Source: Methanobacteriota archaeon (GTDB lineage: Archaea > Thermoplasmatota > Poseidoniia > Poseidoniales > Thalassarchaeaceae). Taken from it: 64,000 nt of DNA. Each line of letters starts with the position of its first letter. The first letter of the stretch is position 1. Under the pieces are notes generated by a model. The model was not told the DNA's origin, did not search any database, and was given only the letters and a program-made list of their open reading frames with translations. This document shows, in pieces, positions 6,906 to 52,572 of the stretch. Made by a program: the position numbers and the translations under genes. The stretch spans positions 1,476-65,475 of the forward strand of contig JAAZXI010000004.1 in NCBI GenBank assembly GCA_014240285.1, given 5' to 3'.

Positions 6906-7021
6906 GGCTAGCCCGCTCGCTGTCCGCCTGTTATCCCTTGCGCACACGTGAGTGATGCTGAATTCACGTATAGCAGAGGTCATAAACAGCAACCGAGCGC
7001 GATGCCCGTCGAGGACTGAGA

Positions 7022-14448: not shown

Positions 14449-14483
14449 AAGTCTGAATCCAAAATGCTTCGACCAGAGGTCAG

Positions 14484-28773: not shown

Positions 28774-28774
28774 T

Positions 28775-31700
28775 TTACTCCCCCTTCAATACTACTGCCA
28801 GATCCGCCTGTAGTGCCCTTCGCGTGGTGTAGAGCAGTGCCACCATCACCGCAATCAACACGGACGCGTTGACCAATGCGAGGTCTAACCAAGGCCAGAC
28901 TAGTTCCCTACTTATCGGTGCACTCTGACCTAGGAACAACTGGAATATGAAGCCGAAAATTCCGAAGAAGCCATTGAAAGACTCAGCGATGGCTAGACCG
29001 AGTATGACCCCTAGACCCATGCTCACAAGCAGTATGGAGAGAATCTCGAAGAGGACCAGTCGTATGACCTGGTTGGGACTCGCCCCTATTGCCTGAAGTA
29101 TGGCCAGTTCGCGCTTTCGCTGAGTCAGGACCAGGGACAGGAACACGAACGCGGAGGCCACCGAAGCCAGTGATGCCACGACGAACTGCAGGCTGAGCAG
29201 CCCGGGGGTGCCGAAGATTAGCCCCCCGTTTCGCTCGTTGTCCCTGTGGGCGGACGACCAGTCCGAGGCCGCGGTTACCCCGTTCCCGTTGGCTATCTCG
29301 ATGCTGATGGTCCTGAGTGCGTCTGCGCAGTCCTCGTCGCTCTGGTCGCACACCTCGAAGAACCAGCGAGTGGAGGTGTAGGCATCCGCAGTCGCGTTGC
29401 CAACCAGCTCCCTGTAGGCGGACTCGCCGATGACTATGGCCTGCTCCGCCTCGGACGAGGACAGGCCGGGGACCCAACTGTGCCTTCCCTGGTAGGTCAC
29501 CGTCGATTCGGTCACCGTAGTCGTCACGACCAGTTCGAAGTCCGCGCCGATCTGAAAGTCGTAATCCGTGTACTGAATGGTCTGGGACGATTCGGATTCA
29601 ATGTCATCGAGAACGTCTCTGGCTGCCTCTCCTGCAGTGAATCCACCGCCCGACCAACCGGACACTATCGCGTCGATTTCGTCTCCTGGAATCGCCTGCG
29701 AGTCCCATATCAGCGTGTCTTCGTGGCCGTCGAACAGCACCCAGGTTCGAATCAACGCGGACTTGCCCTCAGGGTTCGTAAATAGGTCCGCCACCGAAGT
29801 CATCGAATCGATGTCGGTGACGTCAGCATCGCCAGCGCGCTGGATGGCGAGCATCACCTCGTCTCTAGCCTGTTGCTCGGTGACAGGGGAGTCGAACTGT
29901 ACCTGTAAGTCTGCACCGATTTGAGCTGAGGTCGTTCGTTCGTCTACGATCGTACCGGTGTACCCCTGGACGGCGGCTAGAGTGACGATTGACAGAGTGA
30001 GCAGCATGATGACTGCGAGGCGGTTCACCGACTCGCTGGAGCCGGAACCCCGGAGTCCGCGCCGGATGTCCGAGATTGCCGGTGACCAGGAAAGCAGCCC
30101 GGTCAGTATGTTCGGTCCAGCAGCACCTATCCTACCGAGTACCAGAGCCCCTCCGACCCAGAGGCAGAACGGTCCCAGAAGCAGCAGAATCGCGTTCAGG
30201 ATGAAATTACCGATGATGCCGCTGCTCCCCCAGATCCAGAACCCCCCCTGAGACTGAATCCAGCTCTCTAGGTACGAGAGCAGCCCGACTGCGAAGGCGA
30301 TGACGTGGAGCCATGTCCTGGGCTCTCGCTTCTCGGCGACCCTCCTGACGCCCTCGTCAATCTCTATCCTCAGGAACTCCCTGGTGCGTGAGCTGCCAAA
30401 CAACAGGGCTACGCCCACGGTCAGGGCGACGATGAACAGGGTGGAACCGAAACTCAACGTCGGGTTGATTTCGATCCCACCGGATCTGAAGGACATGAAC
30501 CCGACAGCATCGAGCACCATTGGGACTGAGAGCAGCGCCAGCGTGTAGCCCACGAACCACGCGAACAGGCTGATTACCGCGAGTTCGAGCAGGATCATGC
30601 CCGACAGGGTGCTCTCCGTGCCACCTATGACACGGTGGATCGAAATCTCTCTCTTACGCTGCTCCAAAGACAGGACCAGTCCATAAATCAGCACCGAGAA
30701 GGAAAGCACCACGATGGGGATCATCAGGATGTAGTCGAAGACCTGTATGATTCCGAGGAATATGTTGAGGAAGATGATGGTACCTGAAATGAGGTCGTTG
30801 TACTCTACTATGATGCCTGCGCTGGTGTAGTTCCCGGATTCTACGTCTCCCTTCAGGGCGTCTAGCCACTTCGTCGCGTCTGCTGTGGATGTGGTGGGTA
30901 GCTGGTTCCTGTCCACCGACAGGCCGAGGTATCCGTGGTCATTGTCCATTAGGATGAGTTTCTGCTCGTCGCTGAGAACCGCGTCGGAAACCATGACCGG
31001 GTTAAACAACAGGGTTGGGTTTCCCGCCCCCCCCTCCTGGTACACGGCTGCCACTGTCAGGTTGTGGACGGTCATGTTCACCCTGCAGTACATGTATCCG
31101 GACTGGGCGTTGAAGTCCTCCTCGCCTTCGCAGTCCTCGAACCCGTCGGCGATGTTCTGGTAGCCGAGGTAGCCAGTCACGTAGGTGAAAGTGAGGGATG
31201 AGATTGTGTCGTTTACCGCAACTCCGGCGCTGCTCGCCACCTCTGAGGGCAGCACAATCGAACGGTTTGCAGCCGCATCATCAGCGCTGGCGGGCCAACT
31301 GCCGTAGATGATGCGTGAGTCCTGGCCTCGTGTCGAGTGTCGCTCGCCGAGCTCGCCATCCCATATGCCTTCACTGTAGAACCGGATCGTCCTGTCGCCA
31401 TTGATTGGTGGTCCCGATTCCAGTGCCTCAGGATAATCCCAACTGATATTGGACCAGTCGCCCGTGGGGCTCTCGGCGGCGACGACGTTGAGGGGTTGGG
31501 GGATGATGAAGTCCTCATCGAAGAAGCCGTCGACCCTGACGCCTTGGCGACCGAAGACCAGACCGCAGTCCGAGAACTCCTCCCTGGCGACGAACTCATC
31601 GCACATCGATTCCCACAACAAAGAGTCGTTGGTGCGACCCTCGGCGTCCTCTCCGGGGTCCTCCGCGAAGTCGACCTTCGCATCGAATATTTCCTCCTGG

Positions 31701-32287
31701 AGCGAGTACTGTAGGAAGGCCTGAGACAGCCCGACTCCGTATGCCAGCACCGTCGTGATAACTAGAGATGCGAGGAAGACGCCAGCGAACACAGCGAGAA
31801 CTCTCTCACGGCCCCTCCAGGAGCTCTTCGCCGCCATCAGTAGATTATCGGGCATCGCGGAGAGAATGTCCCGAATACTGGCTTCCCGAGCGGTGTTGGT
31901 CGGGGGATCGCCATACCTATTCACCCCAGAATTGCCACGTATGAATAGTGGGATACCTAGGCTAATTGGGAAGACTAGGGCCCAGAACCAAGAGAAGCCT
32001 GAGTCCTGGTACCTCCTGACTGTGACACTCAACCCCGGTAGGGTTAGGAAGAGAACGGCCAGTGCGGTGAGTAGGAGATTGAAACCTACGAGCATCGTCA
32101 TCACGGAATCGATAATCAGCGTGGTGACAAGTACGATCCAGTAGAATAGTAAGAACCACCAATATTCGGACCGTGAGGCTCTGCCACTCCAGTTCAGGTA
32201 GTTGCTCAAGCAAGACTTTACCGACTCGATGAAGGTCATCATCCTCACTGGTCTTCCATGGCCAGTTTGAGAGTGGTGTTCAGTCAT
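28775..32287 (-). CDS. Fusion permease: DUF805 domain plus two FtsX-type permease modules with two large extracytoplasmic domains
   Basis: The N-terminus FIESVKSCLSNYLNWSGRASRSEYWWFLLF...GVNRYGDPP is the DUF805 signature. Two FtsX-like regions are present (LEQRKREISIHRVIGGTESTL... and LTQRKRELAILQAIGASPNQVIRL...). The start could also be M16/M17 (32242/32239). Confidence 0.75.
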   Translation of the reverse strand: MTEHHSQTGHGRPVRMMTFIESVKSCLSNYLNWSGRASRSEYWWFLLFYWIVLVTTLIIDSVMTMLVGFNLLLTALAVLFLTLPGLSVTVRRYQDSGFSWFWALVFPISLGIPLFIRGNSGVNRYGDPPTNTAREASIRDILSAMPDNLLMAAKSSWRGRERVLAVFAGVFLASLVITTVLAYGVGLSQAFLQYSLQEEIFDAKVDFAEDPGEDAEGRTNDSLLWESMCDEFVAREEFSDCGLVFGRQGVRVDGFFDEDFIIPQPLNVVAAESPTGDWSNISWDYPEALESGPPINGDRTIRFYSEGIWDGELGERHSTRGQDSRIIYGSWPASADDAAANRSIVLPSEVASSAGVAVNDTISSLTFTYVTGYLGYQNIADGFEDCEGEEDFNAQSGYMYCRVNMTVHNLTVAAVYQEGGAGNPTLLFNPVMVSDAVLSDEQKLILMDNDHGYLGLSVDRNQLPTTSTADATKWLDALKGDVESGNYTSAGIIVEYNDLISGTIIFLNIFLGIIQVFDYILMIPIVVLSFSVLIYGLVLSLEQRKREISIHRVIGGTESTLSGMILLELAVISLFAWFVGYTLALLSVPMVLDAVGFMSFRSGGIEINPTLSFGSTLFIVALTVGVALLFGSSRTREFLRIEIDEGVRRVAEKREPRTWLHVIAFAVGLLSYLESWIQSQGGFWIWGSSGIIGNFILNAILLLLGPFCLWVGGALVLGRIGAAGPNILTGLLSWSPAISDIRRGLRGSGSSESVNRLAVIMLLTLSIVTLAAVQGYTGTIVDERTTSAQIGADLQVQFDSPVTEQQARDEVMLAIQRAGDADVTDIDSMTSVADLFTNPEGKSALIRTWVLFDGHEDTLIWDSQAIPGDEIDAIVSGWSGGGFTAGEAARDVLDDIESESSQTIQYTDYDFQIGADFELVVTTTVTESTVTYQGRHSWVPGLSSSEAEQAIVIGESAYRELVGNATADAYTSTRWFFEVCDQSDEDCADALRTISIEIANGNGVTAASDWSSAHRDNERNGGLIFGTPGLLSLQFVVASLASVASAFVFLSLVLTQRKRELAILQAIGASPNQVIRLVLFEILSILLVSMGLGVILGLAIAESFNGFFGIFGFIFQLFLGQSAPISRELVWPWLDLALVNASVLIAVMVALLYTTRRALQADLAVVLKGE

Positions 32288-33062: not shown

Positions 33063-34013
33063 TCAACCACCTTGGGTTGCATCATGGTAAGCTTCAGCCA
33101 TGGCTTGTCCTTGTGCATCGGCACTCAGAGTATTCTTTACATGGTCAATTATGGAATCATCTGGATTCCTAGGGACTCCACCTGCTCGCATCCAAGCAGC
33201 ATGGACTTTTACTATCTCGTCCACCCATGCCACTACATCGGTCGCTGGCAGAAGGCACCGCTCCGGTATCACCTCGTTGTGGGTGGGAAGATTGGCTGCG
33301 ATGACAGGGCATCCGGCGGCCATCGCTATTGCTGGTGGGTAGCCGAAGCCCTCTGAGATGCTAGGGAACAGGAGGGCCTCAGCATGCTGGAAGGCCGCCA
33401 CAAGTTGTTCGTCGTCCAACTCAACCTCGCTTCCGATGTGGAGCATGTGGATGTCATCGGCTACCTCTTCGGGAAGACTGGTGATGACTTCGCGCACGAA
33501 ATTAAGTCGGTTACGCGGCTCGTCGGTGCCGACGGTAATTAGCAGGCACTTCGAGTCGTCGTCGTGCTCGGCGATGAGTTCGCGGGAGCGCGGATTACCT
33601 TCCGGGTCCCAGTAGTCGAGGTCTATCTGGTGTCGGACGAGCGCGGTTGGCTTACCCGGGAACATCCGCTCGACGTCCCTCCTCGTCATCTCCGAAGCGC
33701 AGATTAGCAAATCTGCCCTCGCCAGTCCCTCCTTCAGTCGCTTGAGGTCGCGACGGCGGAACAGACCTGGTCTCTGATCACCCACAGGAACTCTGATGTC
33801 GCCGGCCTTGATCTGGCGCGGCTCAAGGTGGAACATGTCGTGGACGGTCACCACCACGGGTATGGTGCAGGTCTCGGGGACGAGGTGAGCCTGTTCCTGG
33901 TCGGTTATGTGCAGGAGGTCGGGTTGCGAACTCTGAATTTCTTCCAATATTAGCTGTTTGTGCGAACTATTATTGGAACCTAGGTGCGGAATTTTAGTAA
34001 TACGGATTTCCAT
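33063..34013 (-). CDS. GT4-like (GT-B fold) glycosyltransferase
   Basis: PDLLHITD...VVTVHDM and the C-terminal EGFGYPPAIAMAAGCPVIA (E-x7-E region). Start uncertain: ATG 34013 is preferred, and the ORF is open to 34142. Confidence 0.6.
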   Translation of the reverse strand: MEIRITKIPHLGSNNSSHKQLILEEIQSSQPDLLHITDQEQAHLVPETCTIPVVVTVHDMFHLEPRQIKAGDIRVPVGDQRPGLFRRRDLKRLKEGLARADLLICASEMTRRDVERMFPGKPTALVRHQIDLDYWDPEGNPRSRELIAEHDDDSKCLLITVGTDEPRNRLNFVREVITSLPEEVADDIHMLHIGSEVELDDEQLVAAFQHAEALLFPSISEGFGYPPAIAMAAGCPVIAANLPTHNEVIPERCLLPATDVVAWVDEIVKVHAAWMRAGGVPRNPDDSIIDHVKNTLSADAQGQAMAEAYHDATQGG

Positions 34014-34258
34014 TGTAATTGCCTTCGTCCATCCAGGGACTTTGGCGCGATCAAGCATCACCTCGCTCGTCATATCCTGAGAATACAGTGAACTGCTCCT
34101 AGAGTGGACATCGCCGCGTACTAGTAATACCCGCTTTATCACAATCTGAGCAAGGACCTCGAGTCTTTAACTCAGGTGACTTGAGTAGGTCTTTGGATGA
34201 TATTGCTCAATGAAACGAGGCCCGTGAGTATTCAAATGTGAGGCGTGGTCGGTTAACT

Positions 34259-35413
34259 ATGGAGTCGGAGATGCAGGAACGTCCCCTTCATGTTCTGCTG
34301 GTTCACGTTTGGTACTGGCCCCATGTTGGAGGGGGTGACCAGCATGTGGAGCAGATCGGCATGGAGTTGGTACGTAGAGGCCACCGGGTCACAGTGTGGT
34401 GCGCGGACGTCCCTGCGAACGATGAGAAGAGGTTTAATCGGGGTGGTGTGGATGTTATTCGCATAGAGCCGAGTACTGTACTTGGGGGCGTCGATCCTCT
34501 GGTTTCTGTCAAAGATCTAGACATGAGCGATGTCGATGTAGTTCACCTGCACGATACGTTGCCTGTACTGATACGCAGGACTCTAGCAAAAGCCCGTGCC
34601 TCAGGCAAGCCGATTGTGACTACATATCACAATGACTACGTCAAGCATACGACTGCTGGGAGGTTGCTGAAGAGGCTTAGATGGCGTTTACAGGGCCTTA
34701 GGACGCTGAACTCATCGGATGCTCGAATAGTGCTGACTCCATATTTCGAGCAACTACTGAGGAGCAAGGGCGTGAATGGAGAACTCGAAATCATACCCAA
34801 TGGATTCTCTCCAATTGAAGAATCTCCCCAAGCTCCCCCGATTCTAGCGGGCAGGGATTCAAGCAGGCCACTTCTGGTATTTGTCGGCAGACTCAGCGAG
34901 CAGAAGGGGATTGATGTGATGATGGATGCTTGGGACATCGTTGCCTCAGAAGGAGACCCTGGTTATGATTTGGCAATCGCGGGAGATGGCGAGTTGAGAA
35001 CATGGTTGACCAAGAGGTGCAGTGAGGCAAACTGTGCATCGAATATCTCGTTGCTGGGGTTGGTGACTGAGTCGGAGAAGCGGTGGCTGTTTGAGAGTGG
35101 TACGGCTGTTGTTATTCCCTCCAGATTTGAAGGACTCCCTACAGTGTTGCTCGAGTCAATGTATGCCGGAACACCAGCGATTATGACTGATGTGAGTGGC
35201 CTTGGGAGTCTACTGATTGAGGCTGGAGCGGGGATAACAATCCCTCCGGAGGACCCTACATCGCTAGCTTCGGCTATGGACGAGGCAGCCTTGGCAAATA
35301 GAGAGAAATTGGATGATTGGGGGGCCAAAGGGACGATTGCTTCTCAGGAATATCTGTGGTCATCGGTGGTAGACCGGGTTCTGGAAGTCTATCGCAAGGT
35401 ATCTAGTGATTAG
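34259..35413 (+). CDS. GT4 glycosyltransferase
   Basis: HVLLVHVWYWPHVGGGDQHV, VVHLHD, FVGRLSEQKGID, PSRFEGLPTVLLESMYAGTPAI. ATG at 34259 (GTG at 34238 is possible). Confidence 0.8.
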   Translation: MESEMQERPLHVLLVHVWYWPHVGGGDQHVEQIGMELVRRGHRVTVWCADVPANDEKRFNRGGVDVIRIEPSTVLGGVDPLVSVKDLDMSDVDVVHLHDTLPVLIRRTLAKARASGKPIVTTYHNDYVKHTTAGRLLKRLRWRLQGLRTLNSSDARIVLTPYFEQLLRSKGVNGELEIIPNGFSPIEESPQAPPILAGRDSSRPLLVFVGRLSEQKGIDVMMDAWDIVASEGDPGYDLAIAGDGELRTWLTKRCSEANCASNISLLGLVTESEKRWLFESGTAVVIPSRFEGLPTVLLESMYAGTPAIMTDVSGLGSLLIEAGAGITIPPEDPTSLASAMDEAALANREKLDDWGAKGTIASQEYLWSSVVDRVLEVYRKVSSD

Positions 35414-35414
35414 A

Positions 35415-36635
35415 ATGTCAACCGAATCAGCAGAAATGCCTCCGCTCCTAGTAGCAAAGGGATCTTTCCAAGTCATGGGAGGCGCTGAGAGAGACCTGAT
35501 GCGCGTCCTTCCATCATTGAACCGAATATTCTCAGTGCAAATGGCAACAATCCATCCGTCTCAGGAACTCAGGAGCCTTTGCAAACGTGAGAATATTCCA
35601 CTAATTTGTCCGACTCTGTCGTGGGAGAATCCTACGGGAGCTATTTCGATTATTCTGGACACCGGTCGGGACACCTCCTCAAAGGCTTGGGGTGAATGTG
35701 AAGGCCTTGATGAAGCCATATCCAGGACCGATGTCGTACACATTGTCAGTGGAGATGGTAGCCTAACTCTGCTTGATCACATCCCTCAAACTGCAAAGGT
35801 CCACCTCCATCTGTTGGAGCCGCACAGGGGCCTTTACGAGGACACCCTCCACAGAAAGGTCGACGGGTCCCCTAAGAGGAGCCTGATGCTCACTCGACTT
35901 CTTCTATCTCGGGCTAGGCGGCGGGACAAGGCATTGATTGATACTAACTTGAAAAGAGGGAGATTTGGAGTCAGTGGAAATTCTGCCTTCTCCGCTAAGC
36001 GCACTTCCGAAGTCTACGGAATCGATGCGGGAGTATTGTGGCCTTGTGTTGATGCCTCGGAGTATCCGTCCGACTCGTCACAGGACCCTGAAAATCCATT
36101 CTCTGGATCTAACGGAGATTACGTAGTCAGTGTAGGAAGGGCATCTTGGGCCAAGGGGACTTGGGAGACGATTTCGATGCTGCAGGGTACCGGACTAGAT
36201 CTAGTCCATGTTGGCGGAGGTGATGATGCTTCACTTGCTATGATTAGAGCGCATGCTGATTCTTGTGATGTCGGACTTTGGATAGCACCAAGGCTGCCTT
36301 CTCCAGAACTTGTCAAACTAATGCGTGATTCGAGAGCGGTTGTGAGCATGGCCCATGCAGAGTCATTCGGACTCACACCAATAGAAGCCTTTGCGGTTGG
36401 AATTCCGGCCCTTTTTGTCGATGAGGGGGGCTTCCGGGAGACTCTAATCGACGGTGTGAATGGACGACTCCTGCCCCGTGGCGATTACGGCGTCTGGCAC
36501 TCCGCTCTCGAGCAAGCGGCTGATGGCGAAACCCGTATAGAATGGGCTGAGGCAGGACGGGCTCGAATCGCGAAGTTGGATCTCAGCCCGGATGCACACT
36601 GCCATCGTCTGGAGTCGATATTGGACCGTCTTTGA
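35415..36635 (+). CDS. GT4-like glycosyltransferase
   Basis: Its C-terminal half, MAHAESFGLTPIEAFAVGIPALFVDEGGFRETLIDGVNG, is typical of GT-B family 4. An ATG at 35415 follows the stop of the previous gene. Confidence 0.7.
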   Translation: MSTESAEMPPLLVAKGSFQVMGGAERDLMRVLPSLNRIFSVQMATIHPSQELRSLCKRENIPLICPTLSWENPTGAISIILDTGRDTSSKAWGECEGLDEAISRTDVVHIVSGDGSLTLLDHIPQTAKVHLHLLEPHRGLYEDTLHRKVDGSPKRSLMLTRLLLSRARRRDKALIDTNLKRGRFGVSGNSAFSAKRTSEVYGIDAGVLWPCVDASEYPSDSSQDPENPFSGSNGDYVVSVGRASWAKGTWETISMLQGTGLDLVHVGGGDDASLAMIRAHADSCDVGLWIAPRLPSPELVKLMRDSRAVVSMAHAESFGLTPIEAFAVGIPALFVDEGGFRETLIDGVNGRLLPRGDYGVWHSALEQAADGETRIEWAEAGRARIAKLDLSPDAHCHRLESILDRL

Positions 36636-36672: not shown

Positions 36673-37452
36673 ATGGAGTATGATGAACGAAATTTCATGG
36701 ACGAAAGTCGCAAAGAAACAACCGGAGATCGCTCAGCCCAGATTGCCCTGACCATGGGGCTACTACTTTTTGCGTCGGTCATTCTTGGCTCGGGAGCCCT
36801 CGGAGACGACCGTAACTCTAACGCCGCTGATGATGACAATCGTGACGAAGCGGGCGATCGTTTTGGAGACGATAGGGTCGAGATGGATTTGGACGAAGAC
36901 ATGGTGAGGCTCGAGATAGCCTGCGATGACGGTGATGTCGAGGCCTGCGAAGAGCTGAGAGACATGTTCGAGAACAGGATGATGGAAGGTCGCACAGACA
37001 TGCGAGAGATGGATGAGCGCCGTGGGAACGACGATCGCGACATGCGGGGGGAGAATCAGATGCGAGTGCCACCCGAGGTGCTCCGTGAGATGGCTCAAAT
37101 GTGGTGCCATAATCATGTCTTCAACACCTTCTGGGATAACACCAACGCCGTCGAGTTGGATGACGGTTCAGGCTTCGAGATGATTACTTACGACGATGAT
37201 GACAATGAGGAAAGCACGGTAATTAGCCACGATGCAATGTGGCAAATCACATCCGGACTCGAACCACTCGTAGGATCTTGTGCTGGCATGATGATGGAGC
37301 TAATGGGAGTAGGAATGCATCCCCATGACACTGTCCACGAAGATGACTGGGGCGAGGAAGAATGGTGTGAGGAACACCCGGATGTCGCGGATTGCCAGTG
37401 GATGGACGAAGACGATTCGGATGAGTCTTATGAAAACGAGCCTCGCGACTAA
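36673..37452 (+). CDS. Hyper-acidic, Met/His/Cys-containing membrane-anchored protein (unknown)
   Basis: N-terminal anchor IALTMGLLLFASVILGSGALG, then a D/E/R/M-rich low-complexity region. Contains CDDGDVEAC, WCHNH, GMMMELMGVGMHPHD and WCEEHPDVADC. Confidence 0.5.
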   Translation: MEYDERNFMDESRKETTGDRSAQIALTMGLLLFASVILGSGALGDDRNSNAADDDNRDEAGDRFGDDRVEMDLDEDMVRLEIACDDGDVEACEELRDMFENRMMEGRTDMREMDERRGNDDRDMRGENQMRVPPEVLREMAQMWCHNHVFNTFWDNTNAVELDDGSGFEMITYDDDDNEESTVISHDAMWQITSGLEPLVGSCAGMMMELMGVGMHPHDTVHEDDWGEEEWCEEHPDVADCQWMDEDDSDESYENEPRD

Positions 37453-38054
37453 TCGAGCGGGATACGTTCGGCCCTAGGGCCGAGCCTGAACACCACTACC
37501 AGGGCTGCTATGCCCACGAGCAGTAGTACCGCTGAAAAGATTGGATTGAGAACCGTGGCCGAGTCGGAGGGCAGCCAAATCGGCATGATGTCGAACAGCG
37601 ATTCACCGCGGACCAACTTCCCACCAATCGACGAAGCCATAGTGGTCATCAACATCGCCATGGCCGCTGTGGCTCCTTGAAGCGCGCTAAGCGAGCGGTG
37701 CTGCCAAACTCCCGGTCCAAGGCGCACCCTGCCTATTACAAACGAGGCCCAGAACCCAAAGGCTAGACCGGTGTACACGAACTTGTTGTAGAGCAAGGCG
37801 TTGTTGACCACGTTGTCGGCTGCGAAGGAACCGCTCAGTGCCGCGATGGGCATGAACATCAGACCCAGCAAGGCCCCCGCAATCGAAGCCTTATCCATCG
37901 TAACCATAACTCGATCAGATGACAATCTTCCGCCGGCAATATTCGGGAAGATTGTGGCTATTGCGCATCCCATCGCGCAAAGTGTGGCCAGCATCATCGA
38001 TCCCACGACCACCTCAGCCATCGCGGCGTGGAACGTCGCTGCTCCGAACATCAC
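37449..38054 (-). CDS. Polytopic membrane protein (about 5 TM), third gene of the envelope operon
   Basis: Hydrophobic throughout. The start GTGATG overlaps the stop of 38051..39172. No motif recognised. Confidence 0.5.
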   Translation of the reverse strand: MMFGAATFHAAMAEVVVGSMMLATLCAMGCAIATIFPNIAGGRLSSDRVMVTMDKASIAGALLGLMFMPIAALSGSFAADNVVNNALLYNKFVYTGLAFGFWASFVIGRVRLGPGVWQHRSLSALQGATAAMAMLMTTMASSIGGKLVRGESLFDIMPIWLPSDSATVLNPIFSAVLLLVGIAALVVVFRLGPRAERIPLD

Positions 38055-39172
38055 TCACCACCTTCCGGCGGATTGTTCGGATCTGCCACCCACTCTTCTT
38101 CAACCGGGTCCCACAGCCATCCGGGATTCTCCTCAGACGGGACCATTCTCGACCAGTAGTCGTCCGCGGGCTCTAGACCTGGGGGCTCTTCTGGAGGCGA
38201 CTCGGTCGCCTCGACCTCCTCGGTGTGATCGGGGTCTTGGCGACCCTCCCAAGGAGAGAGCCTAGCTTGCAGCGAGAGCAGGAACGCAATGATGAGTAGT
38301 CCGAAAGCGAGGGCTTGTATCCTCGCACCCCATATCTCACCGTCGAAAGCGGCCGGCTCAGTAGCCACAGTCAACCACGGCTGTACTATCGAGAAGTCTC
38401 CATTGGACGTAGTGACCTGATACTGGATCCGGATGTCACCAATGGTAGCTGGTAGCATGGCGTGCCACTCGTCGTCCTCTCCTGTGACTTCGGCATTGTG
38501 CGGCACCCACTCGTCCTCCAACATCCACTGAACCGAGACAGAAGTGGTGTTCCGCGTCCTAATCACAGTTGGAGAGTCGTCGCCTGTAACTCTGGTCTCG
38601 GGTGACCAGTCGAAAGCGAAGCCGGGTAGGTTCTCTGGCACGGGCTGGACATCGACTACATAGCCGCGGGTAAGTGCCGAGTAGGCCCAGTTGTTGCTAT
38701 TAGGACTGGAGCCGTGATGAATCTCCGTCAAGAGAGTCTGAATTCCGGGCTGCACAGGAGCCAGCATCACCCAGGTAAGCGTTACCGAGCCGCTGGGCGG
38801 GACGACGACTTCGACATAATTGCGCGTGCCGCCGTTAGGGTCCTGAAGGATGTTCCAACCGTGGTCCTCTGGATGGTCGTCGTTACCGTTAGCCGATCCT
38901 AACAGGAACACTCCTAGCAGTCGGTTGCCCGACAGACTCATCCCGCTTGCTGTGACATGTACCGCGGTTGCGGTACCCGAAAATGCGAGGGGATTGACTG
39001 ACACCGTCACGGTGCCGTCCGATGGACTGCTGAGCGCCGGGTCGCCGTGGCACGAGCCTCCGCAGGTGTAGTCTCGGTCTGCATCGCCCTCGCCACCGGG
39101 ATTGGCCATGCTAGCGCCGGTGGCGAGCAGTAGCGCGATGATGGTTAACACGGCGACTCGGGGGCGCATCAC
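38051..39172 (-). CDS. Anchored exoprotein with an N-terminal CGGSCH module
   Basis: Signal peptide MMRPRVAVLTIIALLLATGASMA. CGGSCH at residues 37-42. Two beta-rich domains, then the TM helix IQALAFGLLIIAFLLSL and an acidic Pro/Glu tail. Confidence 0.6.
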   Translation of the reverse strand: MMRPRVAVLTIIALLLATGASMANPGGEGDADRDYTCGGSCHGDPALSSPSDGTVTVSVNPLAFSGTATAVHVTASGMSLSGNRLLGVFLLGSANGNDDHPEDHGWNILQDPNGGTRNYVEVVVPPSGSVTLTWVMLAPVQPGIQTLLTEIHHGSSPNSNNWAYSALTRGYVVDVQPVPENLPGFAFDWSPETRVTGDDSPTVIRTRNTTSVSVQWMLEDEWVPHNAEVTGEDDEWHAMLPATIGDIRIQYQVTTSNGDFSIVQPWLTVATEPAAFDGEIWGARIQALAFGLLIIAFLLSLQARLSPWEGRQDPDHTEEVEATESPPEEPPGLEPADDYWSRMVPSEENPGWLWDPVEEEWVADPNNPPEGGE

Positions 39173-41811
39173 ACAGACCTCCTGCGGCTCTCGGTCAGTG
39201 TGATTCCGATGGCCGCTGCACCGAGGATTAGCAGCAACGCGGCTATCGGCAGTGTGAGAAGTTTGGGCGAGCCGGTAGGATCAGTGTCGACTGATTCTGC
39301 GGCGGCCGTGGCATCGACGCTAACCATGTTCGCGCCGGCAACTATCCAAACCACCTCGTGGCCGTCGACCACCGTCGTCACAGCATAGTAGAGTACTGTG
39401 GCAACAGGGGCTGTCTCACTCCACGAAGTATCGCTGGTATCCCCTACGGGCTCCATGTCGAGCGGCACCGGATCACCCCAAGCGGGAATAGAGTCGAGTG
39501 CTGTCAGCCCGACCACAGTTGAAATCGGGCTGGTGGAACGGTAGATCTGATACTCAGATGATGCTCCGTTCCACGAGAGTCTCACGGTCGAGCCGTCGAG
39601 CGAAGCAGAGAGATCCGAGACCGAGGCGACCGAGCCCAGAATAATTTCGTTCTCCAGTGTATCCGAATCACCCATGTCATCTATCACCGTCAGTGCGACC
39701 GTATGCACTCCTCCAGGAAGCAGCACGTCGATTACCGGTCCAGACAAACTGACACCGTTGACAGTCCAGAACCAAGTCACCACCTCTCCGTCCGAATCGG
39801 TGGACGTGGTTCCGTCTAAGCTCATCATCGCACCCGGTACAAGCAACTCAGGCGATGTAGTCCACCAGGCCATAGGAGGGAGGTTGGCGATTGTTATCTC
39901 CTTGGAGGTGGATGTGGTGAGGCCCCACGGATCACTTGCGATGACGGTGACACTCCAAATCTGATTGGGCTCAAGCCTCGACGAAGGCACCACCGATTGG
40001 CCATCTAGGTCAGGCACGTGGAAGCCGTTTCTCGACCACTGGTAGTTGAACAGCACAATCTCCTCGTCGGGGTCCTCGGAGATGGCCTGCACCACAAGGT
40101 CGTGAACAGAGTCGGGCACACCGAGCTCGGACGAACCGAAGTCCCCTCCCAGTGTTATCTCGGGCACGCCTGGAGGGGCGTTCTGTATGGCGCGCGCGTT
40201 GGTCTTCATCGATGATCCTAGACCGTCGCCGTCGCCGGGGATGACCTGCACGGACCAATGCTGGTCCCTGATAGTCTCGGACGCGGGGACCGTTGTCATG
40301 TCATCGTAGTCGCGAATCCATTCACCGTCGACCCACCAGCGGATCTCACTGTTCGACTCGGAATCGCCGTCGATATCGCTCTGTTCCCAGATGACTGTCA
40401 GGTTCATCGTGGTGATTAAATCGTCCTCGGGCAGCATTGATATCGAGGTCACGATTGGAGGCGAGTTCTGTATCAATACCTCGTTCGTAGTCACCATTTC
40501 AGACCATACCAGTCCGTCGGAGACTCTGACCTCGGCTACCCATAACTCACCTTTTGAAGTGGCTTCGGGCGGGACCCAATTCAGGTCGTTGTAAGCAGAT
40601 ACCTGAGTCCCGTCTCTTAGCCATCTAATCTCGGTCGCATCCTTGGGGTCACCATCTGGATCATTGTATCCTATGATGACCTGTAGGGCATCGGTTGTGA
40701 TTGCATCGCCAGAGGGTGAGATGTAAGCGGTTGCCGATGGTTGCAGGTTAGATGAGCCGATGACGATGATTCCTGTCCACACAGTGTCGCCGTAGTCGTT
40801 CCCATCGTGTGGTCTCACCAAGGCCTGCCATTCGTCACCAGTCCTAGTCCATAGACTGGAAACGGTATTCGAGTCATCCAGCTCGACTATCCTCGCCCCG
40901 TCAAGATACCATTGAATGGCCGTGTTCTGCTGGGGGTTCCCATCGAGGTCGAAGTATTCGTAATCAAGAGAAAGGTCGTCGGAGTCCAGAGGTTCCGCCG
41001 GGTAGACATCTAGATTCCTAGCTACTGGCAGGGTGTTGCCGATAGTAACCGGGTCGAGCATGACGGGTTCACCATCCTCGTTGACATCAGAAGGTATCAC
41101 CTCGACCTGCCACTCCTGTCCCCTTGCAATCCAACTGTTTGGCACATCAGTCTGGTCGTCTATCTGTGAGACTCTGAGTCCGTTTCGAAACCACTTAATC
41201 TGCGTGCCCTGCTCAGAGTCGCCGTCGGCGTCGTGGTAGTCGTAAGAGACACCCAGCCCGGTGCTCTTGGTCGGACTGGTCGGGACGTAGGTGACGTTGG
41301 AGGCCACCGGAGGCGTATTGCTTGACCCGCTGTCCTCAGAAGATTGCCAAGATGTAGTTGCCCAGCCATCACCAGTATTCTGTCCATTTCCATTAGCTGC
41401 AAGAACTGCAAGAGAGAATGCAACTGCACCTGAACCAGAGGAAGGGGCATCCCAATCCAAGGACCAGGAACGGTAGTCAGGGAATTGGTGGGTTGCCTCA
41501 TTACCTCCTGAGTTAATCTGAGTATTCATTATTCCAAGACCGGATGATAGGGTACCATCAGACACATGCAGATTGAAACCTCCTTTTGAGCCAGAAACGC
41601 CACCTGACATCCCTATTGATAGTGAATAGGTTTGACCAGGAATGTAGTTTGCTGGGAAGTTATGAGTTGGAGTGGGTTGGATTACGTCGTTGTGACACGT
41701 ACATCCTGTGGTGTGTTTTCCATAGATTCCATCTTCCTCTGCAAAGGCAACTTGCGATGAAGAAAGAATAAACATTAGCAAGATTGCGACGGCGATGCGA
41801 CGGCGAACCAC
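39169..41811 (-). CDS. Anchored exoprotein: GCTCH N-module, five tandem ~95-aa repeats, PKD-like and Fn3-like domains, TM anchor
   Basis: A GTG start gives the signal peptide VRRRIAVAILLMFILSSSQVAFA. CTCH at residues 37-40. A PKD-like segment is present (MMSLDGTTSTDSDGEVVTWFWTVNG...). C-terminus is LPIAALLLILGAAAIGITLTESRRRSV. Confidence 0.7.
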   Translation of the reverse strand: MVRRRIAVAILLMFILSSSQVAFAEEDGIYGKHTTGCTCHNDVIQPTPTHNFPANYIPGQTYSLSIGMSGGVSGSKGGFNLHVSDGTLSSGLGIMNTQINSGGNEATHQFPDYRSWSLDWDAPSSGSGAVAFSLAVLAANGNGQNTGDGWATTSWQSSEDSGSSNTPPVASNVTYVPTSPTKSTGLGVSYDYHDADGDSEQGTQIKWFRNGLRVSQIDDQTDVPNSWIARGQEWQVEVIPSDVNEDGEPVMLDPVTIGNTLPVARNLDVYPAEPLDSDDLSLDYEYFDLDGNPQQNTAIQWYLDGARIVELDDSNTVSSLWTRTGDEWQALVRPHDGNDYGDTVWTGIIVIGSSNLQPSATAYISPSGDAITTDALQVIIGYNDPDGDPKDATEIRWLRDGTQVSAYNDLNWVPPEATSKGELWVAEVRVSDGLVWSEMVTTNEVLIQNSPPIVTSISMLPEDDLITTMNLTVIWEQSDIDGDSESNSEIRWWVDGEWIRDYDDMTTVPASETIRDQHWSVQVIPGDGDGLGSSMKTNARAIQNAPPGVPEITLGGDFGSSELGVPDSVHDLVVQAISEDPDEEIVLFNYQWSRNGFHVPDLDGQSVVPSSRLEPNQIWSVTVIASDPWGLTTSTSKEITIANLPPMAWWTTSPELLVPGAMMSLDGTTSTDSDGEVVTWFWTVNGVSLSGPVIDVLLPGGVHTVALTVIDDMGDSDTLENEIILGSVASVSDLSASLDGSTVRLSWNGASSEYQIYRSTSPISTVVGLTALDSIPAWGDPVPLDMEPVGDTSDTSWSETAPVATVLYYAVTTVVDGHEVVWIVAGANMVSVDATAAAESVDTDPTGSPKLLTLPIAALLLILGAAAIGITLTESRRRSV
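39880..41310 (-). repeat. Five tandem protein-level repeats of about 95 aa inside 39169..41811
   Basis: The recurring pattern is D.DGD(4-6)(I/Y)(K/Q/R)W(4)G(10-14)VP(7-9)W.V.V.P.DG, at about residues 168-260, 261-355, 356-450, 451-545 and 546-644. The DNA copies have diverged; there are no long exact repeats. Confidence 0.7.
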
Positions 41812-48690: not shown

Positions 48691-49311
48691 CTAGTCCAGT
48701 TCGGTCAAATAGGTGCATTCGCCGCTCTCGTGCACCTCGTGGAAGCGCACGCACGGGCGGGTGATGGTCAGATAGACGTCAAAGTGGTCATGGAACGAGA
48801 GTTGCTCGATACCGGGATCAACTCCGTAGCCACGGGCCTCGACCTCAAAGGTCCATTTACCCACTTCGAAGGTGCCATTGCCGAGGGTGAATCTGGTCTG
48901 TGGGTAGTCACTGCTAGTCTCAATCTCCCAAAATGGATCGCCGCCGGCCTCCTTCACACCAGGCTGCCACAGACGCACCTCAACGTAACGCAACTCGTTC
49001 GTCTGGTTGTCAAGAATCTCCTCAAGTTGGGAGGACCAAGGAAACTGCGCACGGAAGTTGATGACAAGCATACTGACGCTCTCGTCGAACTGAATCAATT
49101 CCTCTCTCTCAAACGGCTCAGCGGCCTCCAACCCAACGGTAGATTCGAAGGTGTGTTCCCAACCGAAGGTCTCCTCCTTATCGATCACCAGCGGCGGCTC
49201 CCTCCATTTCTCCATGACCTCCCTCTGGGCGGCTAGACCGAGGCATCCACTGGTCAGCATCGATGCGAGCAGGATGGCGAGGATAGAAACCGCTGTGCTG
49301 CTGCTCTTCAT
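48691..49311 (-). CDS. Hypothetical lipoprotein
   Basis: An ATG at 49311 gives MKSSSTAVSILAILLASMLTSGC (lipobox-like). The mature part is acidic and beta-rich, with no recognised motif. Confidence 0.5.
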   Translation of the reverse strand: MKSSSTAVSILAILLASMLTSGCLGLAAQREVMEKWREPPLVIDKEETFGWEHTFESTVGLEAAEPFEREELIQFDESVSMLVINFRAQFPWSSQLEEILDNQTNELRYVEVRLWQPGVKEAGGDPFWEIETSSDYPQTRFTLGNGTFEVGKWTFEVEARGYGVDPGIEQLSFHDHFDVYLTITRPCVRFHEVHESGECTYLTELD

Positions 49312-49399
49312 CGTCAGTCGGAAACAACAGCCTATCTTCAATCCGCGTGTCGTTTGTCGGCCCTAACAGTCCCATATTGGACTCATGGCCATCTGTCGG

Positions 49400-50184: not shown

Positions 50185-52572
50185 CTATGCAGAGCGGTCA
50201 CTGGATGCAAGGGCCAGAGCACCTCCAAGCATCACTAGAACCCACCCGGCCCAGACTAGGTGGCTTCCCCTCAGGCTGTGCACGGTGACCCTGACGGTCT
50301 CAACTTCTTCGGTCCCACCGAGAATCATGGAGCTCAACAGGTCGTTGGACTGGAAAATGTCCAGAATAACGATGGTGTCGCCTGTCAGGCTGGTCATCCT
50401 GTCGACCTCCGAACGCGAGTTGACTGCTCCGCTTGGGGAGTCGAACCTCAGCATCCCCGGCCTAAGGGTGTCAATGAGTTCCCCGTCCTGTCTCACTTCG
50501 ATTATTACCCCAACAAAGCCGTCGCCAACGCCGAAGTCGTAGGTCTCGTCGTCGGCGGTAATCATTTCAGTGCCGACGAATACCAACTCGTAGCCGTCGT
50601 GCTCGGCTGGCTGATCTCGCTCCAAGGTGACTAGGTGAGAAGGGTCCGAGCGGTCGACGAGAGTGGTGGTCAGGACATGGCCGACCAGCAGCAGGAGGAT
50701 ACCGAGGTGTGCGAGGTGAGAGGCCAGCAGCCTAGTGCGGGAGGCATTACTGTTGCCGAGGCCGCCACTTCTGAGTTTAGGTAGAACGGTATTCGCAGTG
50801 CGCCATGCCTGCTGCGCGGTAGATGGTAGGGCGAAGATCAGCCAAGTCAACAGAAACAGAGCGACTGCCCCTCTAGTTATGCCGTTTGTGAAAATCAAAT
50901 CGGGGTCTCCAGGGAGGGAGAACTGATCGGCGGCGCTCGCGAGAGCAATAGAGGCCAGGAGCACTGCTCCGACCATTTTGTTGCCCACCTCAGGTGTGAT
51001 TGAGCGTCCCCAGGCGTACAGGGTCAGGCCGACGGCAAGCAGTCCGATGAGGGGGGCTCCGTAGAACTCATGGGCTTGGAGACTGGAACCGTCAATCTCT
51101 ATGGTCAGCAGCAGCCATGTCATGAGAAGGAATGCTGCGCCGCCATACCACGGCACCATCCTAGCGGCGCGGGTCCGCGCCGAGGAGTCGGAAAGAGGGA
51201 GTAGAAAATCCTCGAACTCACTCTCGTCCTCAGGAGATAGCAGCCAGGGAGCAAGGAACGGGACCAGTCCAGCGACCGCCTGCTGGATCTCGGAAATCCA
51301 GAGCCAGCTGGAGAAGAGCATCAGCAGGACGCCCATCGCGACCCAGTGCATCGGAGGATGCACGGAATCGCCGTGCACGATTAGTAACAGCAGTGCGAGG
51401 CCGACTGCGAAGACCGCGGTTGAACCGATCCAGAATGCAGCGGCGCAGAAGAACAGTAGCAAGGCTGCGGCCAGTTGTGGCCTAGCCGCCAGCATCGTAG
51501 TGCCATTGGAAGCAGCCACTGTGAGGCTCTGCTGCTGTCGCAGGTGAGCGTAGGAGTAGTAGCCGAGAATCAGAATCACGACGAGATACGAGGTGACCTC
51601 AATTCCCACCGGACTGAACTCAGCGATGTCTATGACGCGCAGGTAGGGATCATCGGCCAGCGTCCCCTCGCCGTCCGCCACGAAGGCGTGGACCGAGGCC
51701 CAGACTCCGTTCGCTCGGGTAACTAAGGTGGCATGGAAGGCGAGCGCTCCGGCAATTAGGCCGATGGCAGGAGCGACCGAGACAGCGCTGGAGCCGGGCT
51801 TGGCCCGTACGTGGACGATAAGCAGCAGTGCGAGCCACGGCAGTATAGAGCCGGTCTCGACAGGGTCCCAAGCCCAGTATCCTCCCCAGTCGAGCACCGT
51901 GTATGCCCACAAGCCACCCAATCCTATGCCGATGGTCCCGAGCACAAAGCCGGCGCGGGCCCAGTGTAGTTGGGCTGCGTGAACCGATTCGGCCGTATCG
52001 CGCCTAATCACTCCAGCTAGGGCTACGCTGGCAGTGGCCAGACACAGGGCGTAGTACGAGAACACGATTGGTGGGTGTATCACCATCAGATCGGTCTGGA
52101 GGAGTGGGTGTAGTTCGCCCTGGCTTCCAATAGCCGCAGCGAACGGGTCGAGCAACCATGAAATGACCACTAGCGCGGCTACCCAGCCGTGCATTATTCT
52201 TACTTCAAGCGGTGCTGGCTCGTCATCTCTGGCCATGAACCAAGTCACTACAGCCAGTATGGCAGCCCATAGGAGAAGAGGTCCCGCCCTACCTCCCCAA
52301 ACGGCTGAGATTCGATACAGTAGAGGTAGTTCGTCACCGCCATAGCGAGCGACTAGGTCGAGAGAGGAGGCATCGAGTACGAAAGCTCCGACCAACAGTG
52401 CGAACGGGGAAATTTGCGCGGCCATCGTGACATTGCGGACAACCGGGTCGCCTGCCTTCTCGGGTCGCGTAATCTGATGCAGGCTGGTCAGTAGCGCGAG
52501 CGCGAGTAGCGCCAACCCGAATCCAGGGAGTACGGAATCACCACCCGTAGTACCTAGCTCTGCTATAGCCAA
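50185..52572 (-). CDS. ccmF: Cytochrome c-type biogenesis protein CcmF-like (haem lyase / haem handling)
   Basis: WWD motif WGGYWAWDPVETGS, many TM helices, and a CcmF_C-like soluble segment near the C-terminus. The start is uncertain: TTG at 52572 overlaps the upstream gene by 35 nt, and the first ATG is at codon 50. Confidence 0.75.
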   Translation of the reverse strand: MAIAELGTTGGDSVLPGFGLALLALALLTSLHQITRPEKAGDPVVRNVTMAAQISPFALLVGAFVLDASSLDLVARYGGDELPLLYRISAVWGGRAGPLLLWAAILAVVTWFMARDDEPAPLEVRIMHGWVAALVVISWLLDPFAAAIGSQGELHPLLQTDLMVIHPPIVFSYYALCLATASVALAGVIRRDTAESVHAAQLHWARAGFVLGTIGIGLGGLWAYTVLDWGGYWAWDPVETGSILPWLALLLIVHVRAKPGSSAVSVAPAIGLIAGALAFHATLVTRANGVWASVHAFVADGEGTLADDPYLRVIDIAEFSPVGIEVTSYLVVILILGYYSYAHLRQQQSLTVAASNGTTMLAARPQLAAALLLFFCAAAFWIGSTAVFAVGLALLLLIVHGDSVHPPMHWVAMGVLLMLFSSWLWISEIQQAVAGLVPFLAPWLLSPEDESEFEDFLLPLSDSSARTRAARMVPWYGGAAFLLMTWLLLTIEIDGSSLQAHEFYGAPLIGLLAVGLTLYAWGRSITPEVGNKMVGAVLLASIALASAADQFSLPGDPDLIFTNGITRGAVALFLLTWLIFALPSTAQQAWRTANTVLPKLRSGGLGNSNASRTRLLASHLAHLGILLLLVGHVLTTTLVDRSDPSHLVTLERDQPAEHDGYELVFVGTEMITADDETYDFGVGDGFVGVIIEVRQDGELIDTLRPGMLRFDSPSGAVNSRSEVDRMTSLTGDTIVILDIFQSNDLLSSMILGGTEEVETVRVTVHSLRGSHLVWAGWVLVMLGGALALASSDRSA

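Follow-up and report, generated by a model that had tools for sequence, protein, structure and literature searches.

A conserved three-gene envelope operon of Poseidoniales whose two anchored proteins share a Cys-His site: candidate components of an outward-facing haem module

Poseidoniales are among the most abundant archaea of the surface ocean and are uncultured. We have examined a three-gene operon located in a 64,000-nucleotide (nt) stretch of DNA from an archaeon of this order (family Thalassarchaeaceae; assembly GCA_014240285.1, contig JAAZXI010000004.1, positions 1,476 to 65,475), which we refer to as the window. The three genes lie on the minus strand and encode two large anchored envelope proteins of 880 and 373 amino acids (aa) and a membrane protein of 200 or 201 aa, for which A, B and C are used as shorthand. 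An earlier description made from the DNA alone (the sequence-only reading) had pointed to a Cys-Cys-His motif shared by the two large proteins and had suggested that it might bind haem or a metal. Here, we describe the conservation of the trio, the relatives of the A and B heads and the gene contexts in which these relatives occur, and we weigh a covalent haem at the Cys-His site, the explanation that we tentatively favour, against its rivals.

Organization and conservation of the trio

The genes for A, B and C had been described as joined by identical GTGATG junctions in which the stop codon TGA of one gene is embedded in the start of the next, and both the open reading frames (ORFs) and the junction sequences bore this out (Table 1). 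When read from the GTG, C of the window is 201 aa long. Because C homologues are annotated at 200 aa, the ATG is probably the start codon of C, which would give a 1-nt rather than a 4-nt overlap with B.

Homologues of B and C were found in Candidatus Poseidoniales (Marine Group II), mainly in Thalassarchaeaceae/Thalassarchaeum, and a scan of one genome per species returned B relatives in 130 genomes. Synteny was surveyed in 80 fetched loci plus five metagenome loci. Synteny of the trio, with overlaps of 1 or 4 nt, was retained in ∼65 Poseidoniales loci. The layout shared by nearly every locus with sufficient flank consists of an A-type protein of ∼880-900 aa carrying C-x-C-H (x = T, S, N or G), followed by B carrying CGGSCHGD and by a C-type protein of 175-203 aa. 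B was located in 82 genome loci, every one of which has the exact CGGSCHGD string, and in the distant lineage L003 the motif of A is a canonical CSACH. Since the genes that flank the trio in L003 bear no relation to those around it in the window and the flanking genes of L005 are likewise different, the trio moves as a unit. Motifs, gene order and overlaps recur in ∼65 independent genome loci, which places the observation far beyond chance. Overall, the trio is a conserved, translationally coupled unit across Poseidoniales; no description of it as a system was found in the literature searched.

The sequence-only reading had named three outcomes that would speak against it, namely loss of the Cys and His residues in orthologues, loss of synteny elsewhere, and assignment of the N-terminal modules to a well-known family without cofactors. 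None of them was obtained outright: the Cys and His residues are conserved (37 B homologues, 72 members of the A-head family and ∼65 loci), the order and overlaps of the trio are retained in ∼65 loci, and the head of A belongs to a known family, NF041895, and so is not without family.

C had been read as a protein of about five transmembrane (TM) helices, in agreement with the five hydrophobic segments that emerged when hydropathy was averaged over 73 orthologues. Comparison with DUF2231 (PF09990) gave weak matches in three of ten C orthologues and none for C of the window; the best of them, the C orthologue of L005, reached 18.5 bits (E 0.0022; residues 7-129 against profile positions 3-130 of 139), below the cutoff of 26.4. 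C is a five-helix membrane protein with a weak, sub-threshold likeness to DUF2231, for which no functional literature was found, and a search of its profile against PDB sequences returned nothing meaningful. The bias of Lys and Arg among the loops suggests that the N-terminus of C lies outside and the C-terminus inside. Invariant or near-invariant residues of C are His8, Gly17, Cys25, Asp53, Pro68, Gly74, Asn89, Lys90, Arg108, Gly112, Trp116, Gln125, Glu150, Ser151, Asp154 and Pro157, and under the suggested topology His8, Tyr88-Asn89-Lys90, Glu150 and Asp154 are predicted to be on the outer face. We also considered C as the most conserved member of the trio, which is valid among close relatives only (94% identity for C vs 90% for B); among distant relatives it is C that has diverged more quickly (median identity 44% vs 51% for B).

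The heads of A and B and their Cys-His site

Both A and B start with the signal peptides proposed by the sequence-only reading, which by inspection look Sec-like (basic n-region, hydrophobic core and AxA-type site). In both proteins the first Cys is residue 37, as that reading had stated, and the positions that it gave for the motifs, CTCH (within GCTCH) in A and CGGSCH (nt 39047-39064) in B, were confirmed.

The head of A is not a module without family. Residues 15-154 of A matched positions 2-148 of the 150-position NCBIfam profile NF041895 with 91.7 bits (cutoff 42), making A a full-length, full-score member of ‘choice-of-anchor V’, a catalogued domain for which no described function or cofactor was found. 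The A orthologues of L001, L003 and L005 scored 76-82 bits. An exhaustive phmmer search with residues 25-160 of A returned 729 representative clusters at E ≤ 0.001, and many of these relatives are short proteins made of this domain plus a PGF-CTERM, type IX secretion system (T9SS) or TM anchor. Downstream of the head, the stalk repeats of A gave weak matches to ZirU and BiPBP_C, phmmer of A retrieved PDB entry 4l9d_A and further PKD domains at E 7e-6 (Pfam PKD_4 being sub-threshold at 24.3 bits), and a beta-rich region lies between the PKD domain and the C-terminal TM helix.

Residues 22-165 of A were modelled with AlphaFold2 (AF2) from 72 diverse sequences, with a predicted local distance difference test (pLDDT) score of 90.7. 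The two top Foldseek matches of this model were the Reeler domains of F-spondin, 3coo_B (E 5e-6) and 2zou_B (E 4e-5), aligned over the full length with TM-scores of 0.53-0.57, and the remaining matches were generic immunoglobulin (Ig) folds at E ≥ 4e-4. The Pfam Reeler model PF02014 matched 27 of the 72 family members (best E 3.1e-7), with no match for A of the window at E ≤ 1, and the top PDB matches of the family profile were the same three Spondin-1 chains (E 0.0014), with the aligned landmarks Y.PG..Y.(L/V), GF.L and W.AP..G.G.V. Judged by sequence and predicted fold, choice-of-anchor V is the prokaryotic branch of the Reeler domain. The earlier suggestion of a reeler-type fold was thus right, as shown on three sides by the Foldseek matches, the Pfam matches and the PDB matches of the family profile, while the DOMON part of that suggestion gained no support: A gave no Pfam DOMON match, and no DOMON or cytochrome-b-type structure was among the top Foldseek matches. 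No functional study of choice-of-anchor V or of bacterial Reeler domains was found in the literature searched.

B consists of a signal peptide, a divergent Reeler-like head, a second beta-sandwich, a TM helix and an acidic, Trp-rich tail. Pairwise BLASTP of the A and B heads aligned the signal-plus-CH segment only (E 0.002), so that profile methods were needed. With hhalign, the two heads were matched at 95.5% probability (E 1.5e-8) over 84 columns spanning the signal, the motif and the first strands, and the broad family profile was collinear with the whole head of the B homologue P0052. B of the window did not match NF041895 at E ≤ 1, and the B orthologue of L005 did so at E 4.8e-5 and 23.4 bits, below the 42-bit cutoff. 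The head of B is a divergent, remote relative of the choice-of-anchor V/Reeler-fold head. As for the landmarks that the two modules had been said to share, GGFNL/GVFLL and W..AP occupy equivalent positions, but the pairing of ANGNG..GDGW with ANGND..HGW does not stand, the ANGN landmark being located before W..AP in B and after it in A and hence neither collinear nor equivalent. Foldseek with the full two-domain model of B returned only generic tandem-Ig and antibody matches, and phmmer of B against PDB sequences returned nothing meaningful.

The cytoplasmic tail of B carries a conserved Trp-rich motif, PGWLWDPVEEEWV.DP (residues 347-365; nt 38078-38134, minus strand), which AF2 confidently models as a beta-hairpin. 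Similar W-rich tails (GW..EQW.HYG; W.D..G.TWR...W..G..W) end anchored proteins of lineages further away; A of L003 is one of them, and several representatives of choice-of-anchor V are others.

The motif accounts for both cysteines of the 880 residues of A and for both cysteines of the 373 residues of B. Among 72 diverse members of the A-head family only Cys39, His40, Gly78 and Phe79 (A numbering) are invariant, and conservation is 90% or higher at Cys37, at His108 and at several positions occupied by Trp, Tyr, Pro or Gly. Motif spacing was counted in the 147 best representatives of the 729 clusters: 112 carry CxCH, 12 CxxCH, two Cx3CH, six Cx4CH and two Cx5-6CH, and 13 miss the two-Cys motif. 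Several of these 13 are full-length proteins with a Cys next to the His only (GATCH, GADCH, GGCH); others are N-terminally truncated. The canonical CxxCH occurs as CSACH in L003 and as CGGCH in L173, L176 and L177. A similar analysis of 37 diverse B homologues (down to 31% identity) showed that Cys37, Gly39, Cys41, His42, Gly43 and Asp44 are invariant and that Gly38 and Ser40 are at least 90% conserved; further invariant residues are Pro25 and Gly27, just past the signal peptide, and Asp99, Pro101, Trp106, Asn118, Tyr119, Trp134, Pro139 and His153. In the model of A the motif sits on a coil preceding the first strand (pLDDT about 84). The F-spondin Reeler has no Cys-His and no equivalent of His108, with TE in place of TH.

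Attachment sites of c-type haem vary as CX2-4CH, CX15CH and AXXCH, with CXXCK and FXXCH as further documented variants, and CX3CH, the form of CGGSCH in B, is a documented spacing. Because the Cys-His pair is constant while the spacing of the first Cys varies or the first Cys is missing, the site follows the pattern of c-type haem sites, unlike that expected of defined metal sites or structural disulfides.

The head of A also differs from the rest of the operon in its history. In the closest relatives, L006-L008, B is 90%, C 94% and the rest of A 84% identical to the window, vs 42-48% for the A head; in about a dozen distant genomes the A head is 71-78% identical, vs ∼50% for B, 39-60% for C and 52-54% for the rest of A. 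When DNA was compared, nt 41800-41351 were 45-57% identical to L006 and L008, vs 72-94% elsewhere in the operon and 85-90% for the gene upstream, and the profile is inverted in the distant L037 (71-73% in the head tract vs about 45-62% elsewhere in the operon). The 72 loci compared fall into 13 B clades, across which five head types are spread incongruently, with the window as the sole carrier of its head type among the 13 members of its B clade, and the correlation with B identity is 0.62 for the A head vs 0.89 for the rest of A. The A head is a recombining cassette that is exchanged between lineages. Given that it recombines and that every head type retains Cys-x-Cys-His, it is marked as a structure that is exposed and under selection, but in which the conserved site is essential. 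Independently of any cofactor, A could thus serve these archaea as an adhesin, an antigenic determinant or a receptor for viruses. Viral structures searched with Foldseek and IMG/VR scanned with the A-head alignment gave nothing specific and no evidence of viral carriage of the cassette.

Table 1. Coordinates of the operon, of the domains and sites of A and B, and of the CcmF-like gene (positions in the window).
Feature	Coordinates	Strand	Basis
Gene A, 880 aa	39169..41811	-	ORF; choice_anch_V 91.7 bits (cutoff 42); orthologue upstream of B in ∼65 loci
Gene B, 373 aa	38051..39172	-	ORF; 125 homologues, all Poseidoniales-type; AF2 pLDDT 81.5
Gene C, 200/201 aa	37449..38054	-	ORF; 310 homologues
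A/B junction GTGATG, A stop TGA overlapping B start	39167..39172	-	Sequence
B/C junction GTGATG, embedded upstream TGA	38049..38054	-	Sequence
A signal peptide, residues 1-24, MVRRRIAVAILLMFILSSSQVAFA	41740..41811	-	Inspection of translation
A head, predicted Reeler-fold/choice-of-anchor V, residues 25-160	41332..41739	-	NF041895 E 4e-26; AF2; Foldseek
CTCH (Cys37, Cys39, His40), sole cysteines of A	41692..41703	-	Family conservation
His108 (ATH), candidate second ligand in A	41488..41490	-	≥90% conserved across family; putative ligand role
Recombination tract, A head cassette	41351..41811	-	DNA identity profile; cluster incongruence
A Ig-like stalk, five ∼95-aa repeats, residues 166-643	39883..41316	-	I.W..(D/N)G anchors at 205, 299, 395, 490
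A PKD domain, residues 645-722	39646..39879	-	PKD_4 24.3 bits (cutoff 27); PDB 4l9d_A E 7e-6
A C-terminal TM anchor, residues 850-874, then RRRSV	39190..39264	-	Inspection of translation
B head, residues 24-178, remote choice-of-anchor V relative	38639..39103	-	hhalign; family profile
CGGSCHGD (Cys37, Cys41, His42), sole cysteines of B	39041..39064	-	Homologue conservation
B second beta-sandwich, ∼residues 196-268	38369..38587	-	AF2 strands 202-263, pLDDT above 90
B TM helix, residues 280-305	38258..38335	-	AF2 helix
CcmF/NrfE-like protein, 795 aa, WWD motif WGGYWAWD	50185..52572	-	Pfam Cytochrom_C_asm (PF01578) 1e-22

Haem machinery and gene contexts

The sequence-only reading had drawn attention to a CcmF-like gene in the neighbourhood. 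The gene exists, 8.4 kb from the start of A. The first 300 residues of its product scored 127 bits with the CcmF/NrfE models (TIGR00353), far below the family cutoffs, and relatives were found in 308 or more species genomes. About 19 genomes of Thalassarchaeaceae have the gene 11-16 kb from B on the same contig, even where B identity is 44-50%. Since the genes in between are housekeeping genes (Dus, ribosomal protein S2, FKBP), we read this proximity as regional synteny and not as an operon or a functional cluster. The CcmF-like protein is thus a candidate maturation factor outside the operon, with a putative functional link to A and B; a streamlined CcmABCEF system is sufficient in an archaeon (PMC9084895). 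Between the genes for ribosomal protein S2 and FKBP, near the CcmF-like gene, there is also a 216-aa ORF with a lipoprotein-like N-terminus (..LTSGCLGL..; 48691-49341, minus strand), which had no family match and is unlike CcmE.

CxxCH was absent from all ORFs of at least 80 aa in the window, in any frame. When C-x(0-6)-C-H was searched in the window ORFs of at least 150 aa, it was found only in A, in B and in one shadow ORF (57843-58346). Marine Group II is reported to possess cytochrome b and a Rieske protein and to lack a canonical cytochrome bc1 (complex III) (Tully, PMC6336850). Rieske or cytochrome b genes linked to the trio were not found within the window.

The genes around relatives of the A head are more informative. 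On an archaeal chromosome (CP070767.1, 1.99 Mb; loci L173/L175, 4095-10477), ccmA, ccmB, ccmC (TIGR01191, 113 bits), a 50-aa ORF and ccmE are followed by two choice_anch_V genes. This ccmE ends in GCPSKY, which we take to be the archaeal CcmE variant. The first of the two genes starts 13 nt past ccmE in L173 and encodes P0323, a protein of 291 aa with a choice_anch_V domain (99 bits), CGGCH, PKD and TM segments; the second overlaps it and encodes an 870-aa protein with an N-terminal choice_anch_V head (81 bits) and CGNGGCH. This short-plus-long pair is apparently co-transcribed with the haem c maturation genes. Divergently upstream lie genes for a protein with seven CxxCH motifs and for a CcmF-like protein (WGGYWGWD).

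A second type of context involves copper proteins. In L168/L169 and in the archaeal L172 (near ribosomal S17e), a family member with CTCH is encoded directly between multicopper oxidase and cupredoxin genes, and L172 also encodes a 498-aa protein with an N-terminal NCQRCH further downstream of the cupredoxins. A CNCH-bearing member follows the multicopper oxidase in L171, whose label is Rokubacteria, and is itself followed by the contig end. The gene order in L168 and L172 is multicopper oxidase, choice-of-anchor V protein, cupredoxin-repeat protein, small cupredoxin and ∼500-aa protein, and a PhoU/MazE-domain gene is present upstream of the multicopper oxidase cluster in L168 (5128-11210), L169, L171 (5275-7983) and L172 (5194-11176). 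This cluster may represent an uncharacterised copper/haem respiratory or oxidase module. Five further contexts of relatives were uninformative, relatives searched with P0323 gave only two bacterial single-gene contexts, and among the contexts examined no C-like gene was found beside family members outside Poseidoniales. The haem-or-metal part of the sequence-only reading gains circumstantial support from the relatives in the ccm operon and in the multicopper oxidase/cupredoxin clusters, whereas the cofactor itself is deduced.

Tandem arrangement of choice-of-anchor V genes was also seen elsewhere. The archaeal contig L170 (7001-8368) carries two short ones, the second with a PGF-CTERM anchor, and pairs recur in L170, in L173 and, as A plus B, in Poseidoniales.

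As for the surroundings of the operon in the window, an ORF of 259 aa (36673-37452, plus strand), whose product is extremely acidic and has a single hydrophobic segment at its N-terminus, is convergent with C, their 3′ ends overlapping by 4 nt; it had no Pfam or NCBIfam match. In L001 this ORF is missing at that position and a glycosyltransferase gene directly follows C. Three GT4/GT1-type glycosyltransferase genes (33063-36635) adjoin the operon in the window, two of which are also adjacent in L001, and A and B may be among the surface proteins that their products glycosylate. Further away on the minus strand are an ABC ATPase gene and, after it, a gene for a 1170-aa protein in which DUF805 is fused to an FtsX-type permease (27775-32287), a similar pair being found near the trio in L001 and L002; a 1575-aa ORF with a right-handed beta-helix and PKD domains (2265-6992), which is probably another surface protein; and a 1094-aa ORF without a Pfam match (11437-14721).

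Interpretation and comparison with known systems

We propose that in this cell-envelope operon A and B, which are type-I membrane-anchored proteins with N-terminal Reeler-fold heads, would each receive a covalent c-type haem at C-Xn-C-H and so become mono-haem Reeler-fold cytochromes. The haem would be attached after Sec export by the organism's divergent CcmF-type lyase, and the distal ligand might be His108 in A, with Tyr119 and His153 as possible equivalents in B. The head of B would be held near the membrane and the exchangeable head of A at the tip of a stalk of about seven Ig-like domains. C, with its conserved polar cluster facing outwards, would be their partner in the membrane and would serve to dock them or to let electrons or cofactor enter. 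Together, A, B and C would form an outward-facing redox module. The haem reading gains because the motif varies as c-type haem sites do and is conserved with the operon in ∼65 loci; because A and B have no other cysteines and their motif follows the signal peptide; because the choice_anch_V genes of L173 follow ccmE and the relatives in L168/L169, L172 and L171 adjoin a multicopper oxidase; and because the window encodes a CcmF-like WWD protein with relatives in at least 308 species genomes. We regard the presence of covalent haem at the Cys-His site as close to an even call, and the complete module, with haem on both heads, as a good possibility that falls somewhat short of probable. The maturation route, the topology of C, its docking or feeding of the heads and the path of electrons are all conjectural parts of this proposal.

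Several observations weigh against the haem proposal. We know of no biochemical precedent for haem at CX1CH, the form found in A and in most of the family, and the literature searched held no functional study of a CXCH haem motif, its one appearance being a regular expression used by the FEET pipeline. None of the Pfam and NCBIfam cytochrome models matches A or B, the eukaryotic Reeler structures hold neither a cofactor nor a Cys-His, and the motif segment of B has a pLDDT below 50 in the AF2 model. The association of family members with ccm genes comes from a single locus (L173/L175). When CcmA, CcmB, CcmC and CcmE of L173 were searched by tblastn against the fetched loci, which represent a small part of each Marine Group II genome, only generic ABC ATPases were returned. 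C has one invariant His only, and its DUF2231 match is sub-threshold. Finally, a single haem on top of a long non-redox stalk is unable on its own to wire electrons to the membrane; because the stalk is non-redox, the head of A, if a cytochrome, has to work from afar or else bend back towards B.

The conserved Cys, the conserved His and a second His could alternatively serve to capture a metal, most plausibly copper, with A (distal) passing it to B (proximal) and then to C as a small permease or insertase, in the manner of CopC/CopD, YcnI/YcnJ or the cupredoxin/oxidase-loading chaperones. This would explain the three components at decreasing distance from the membrane, the beta-sandwich with a C-terminal anchor beside a polytopic membrane protein, and the three independent loci in which a family member comes directly after a multicopper oxidase, with cupredoxins next in two of them. 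Those clusters, however, equally fit a cytochrome as redox partner, and the ccm-operon context favours haem. A Cys adjacent to His with a first Cys at a spacing of 1-6, or lost, is atypical of a defined metal site; C has few conserved potential metal ligands, and A, B and C gave no match to CopC, CopD or DUF1775 (E ≤ 1 to 10). Taking both sides together, we consider metal capture unlikely.

A cofactor-free role in adhesion or recognition also has its attractions, given the Ig-like/PKD stalk and TM anchor of A, the exchange of head cassettes, which is typical of exposed, selected surface tips, the many alternative surface anchors of the family (PGF-CTERM, T9SS, TM) and the glycosyltransferase genes adjoining the operon; eukaryotic Reeler domains bind matrix or microbial glycans. 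The cysteines would then form a structural or strained disulfide, the tip of A would be diversified by recombination, and B and C would anchor or assemble A. A disulfide leaves unexplained why members with a single Cys keep it beside the His. Bacterial and archaeal members alike have the Cys-His without exception, although identity over the rest of the head falls to 30-40%, the site is preserved through every A cassette type, and the ccm and copper-protein contexts also argue against this explanation, to which we assign a low probability. A thiol-based redox or catalytic Cys-His module, that is, an extracellular thiol-disulfide exchanger or a Cys-His hydrolase-like protein, would be compatible with the only cysteines of each protein being in the motif, since CxC and CxxxC pairs can be redox-active and a neighbouring His may tune the pKa of a Cys. 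Yet the heads bear no likeness to thioredoxin-like or hydrolase folds, variable spacing and single-Cys forms oppose a dithiol mechanism, and the motif lies on an N-terminal coil outside any pocket-forming region, so that such a module seems very improbable.

Returning to the haem proposal, its broadest form is possible and rather more doubtful than the presence of haem itself: choice-of-anchor V/Reeler heads would be an unrecognised class of mono-haem c-type cytochromes that tolerates C-X1-C-H and even a single Cys, A and B would be the principal substrates of the CcmF-type lyase in Marine Group II, and with C they would form a surface redox complex whose distal head is swapped by recombination. 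A and B are concrete candidates for the missing c-type cytochromes of Marine Group II. If haem were confirmed, cytochrome c biology would gain a new fold and a new attachment spacing, and there would be a biochemical handle on the widespread, function-less choice-of-anchor V domain, together with a hint at the purpose of the conserved N-terminal segment of Reeler domains.

With respect to known systems, A resembles the members of NF041895 (and of NF041894, the MXAN_6652 family) in having the head N-terminal, just past the signal peptide, with G-C-x-C-H, and in carrying variable surface modules between the head and an anchor at the C-terminus; in contrast, B has diverged too far to reach a member's score, and the pairing with a DUF2231-like membrane protein is seen only in the Poseidoniales trio. 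The eukaryotic Reeler domain (PF02014; 3coo, 2zou) has the same beta-sandwich fold as the modelled A head and shares sequence landmarks with the A-head family, but F-spondin is without Cys-His and has no known cofactor, and A of the window is below PF02014. Cytochrome f recalls B in its beta-sandwich, its haem site near the mature N-terminus, its large and small beta domains and its single C-terminal TM helix; it differs in its canonical CxxCH and its place in the b6f complex, and no sequence or fold match to it was returned for B. CopC/CopD and YcnI/YcnJ likewise combine an extracytoplasmic beta-sandwich metal binder (anchored in YcnI) with a polytopic membrane protein encoded beside it, and CopC occurs together with a multicopper oxidase, like the family members of L168, L171 and L172; however, there is no sequence similarity, their sites are N-terminal His or Met-rich ones, and C is much smaller than CopD. 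In the ferric reductases FRRS1/SDR2 (Reeler + DOMON + cytochrome b561) an extracellular Reeler domain is joined to a polytopic redox component in the membrane, which sets a precedent for such domains in passing electrons across a membrane to metal outside the cell, whereas the trio has separate genes and neither DOMON nor cytochrome b561, and C is unrelated in sequence and has one invariant His. As judged by sequence, B and C are formal members of no family and the trio would not belong with FRRS1, cytochrome f or CopC/CopD; by analogy, it may at most be called ‘like’ a tethered extracellular cytochrome or metallochaperone set.

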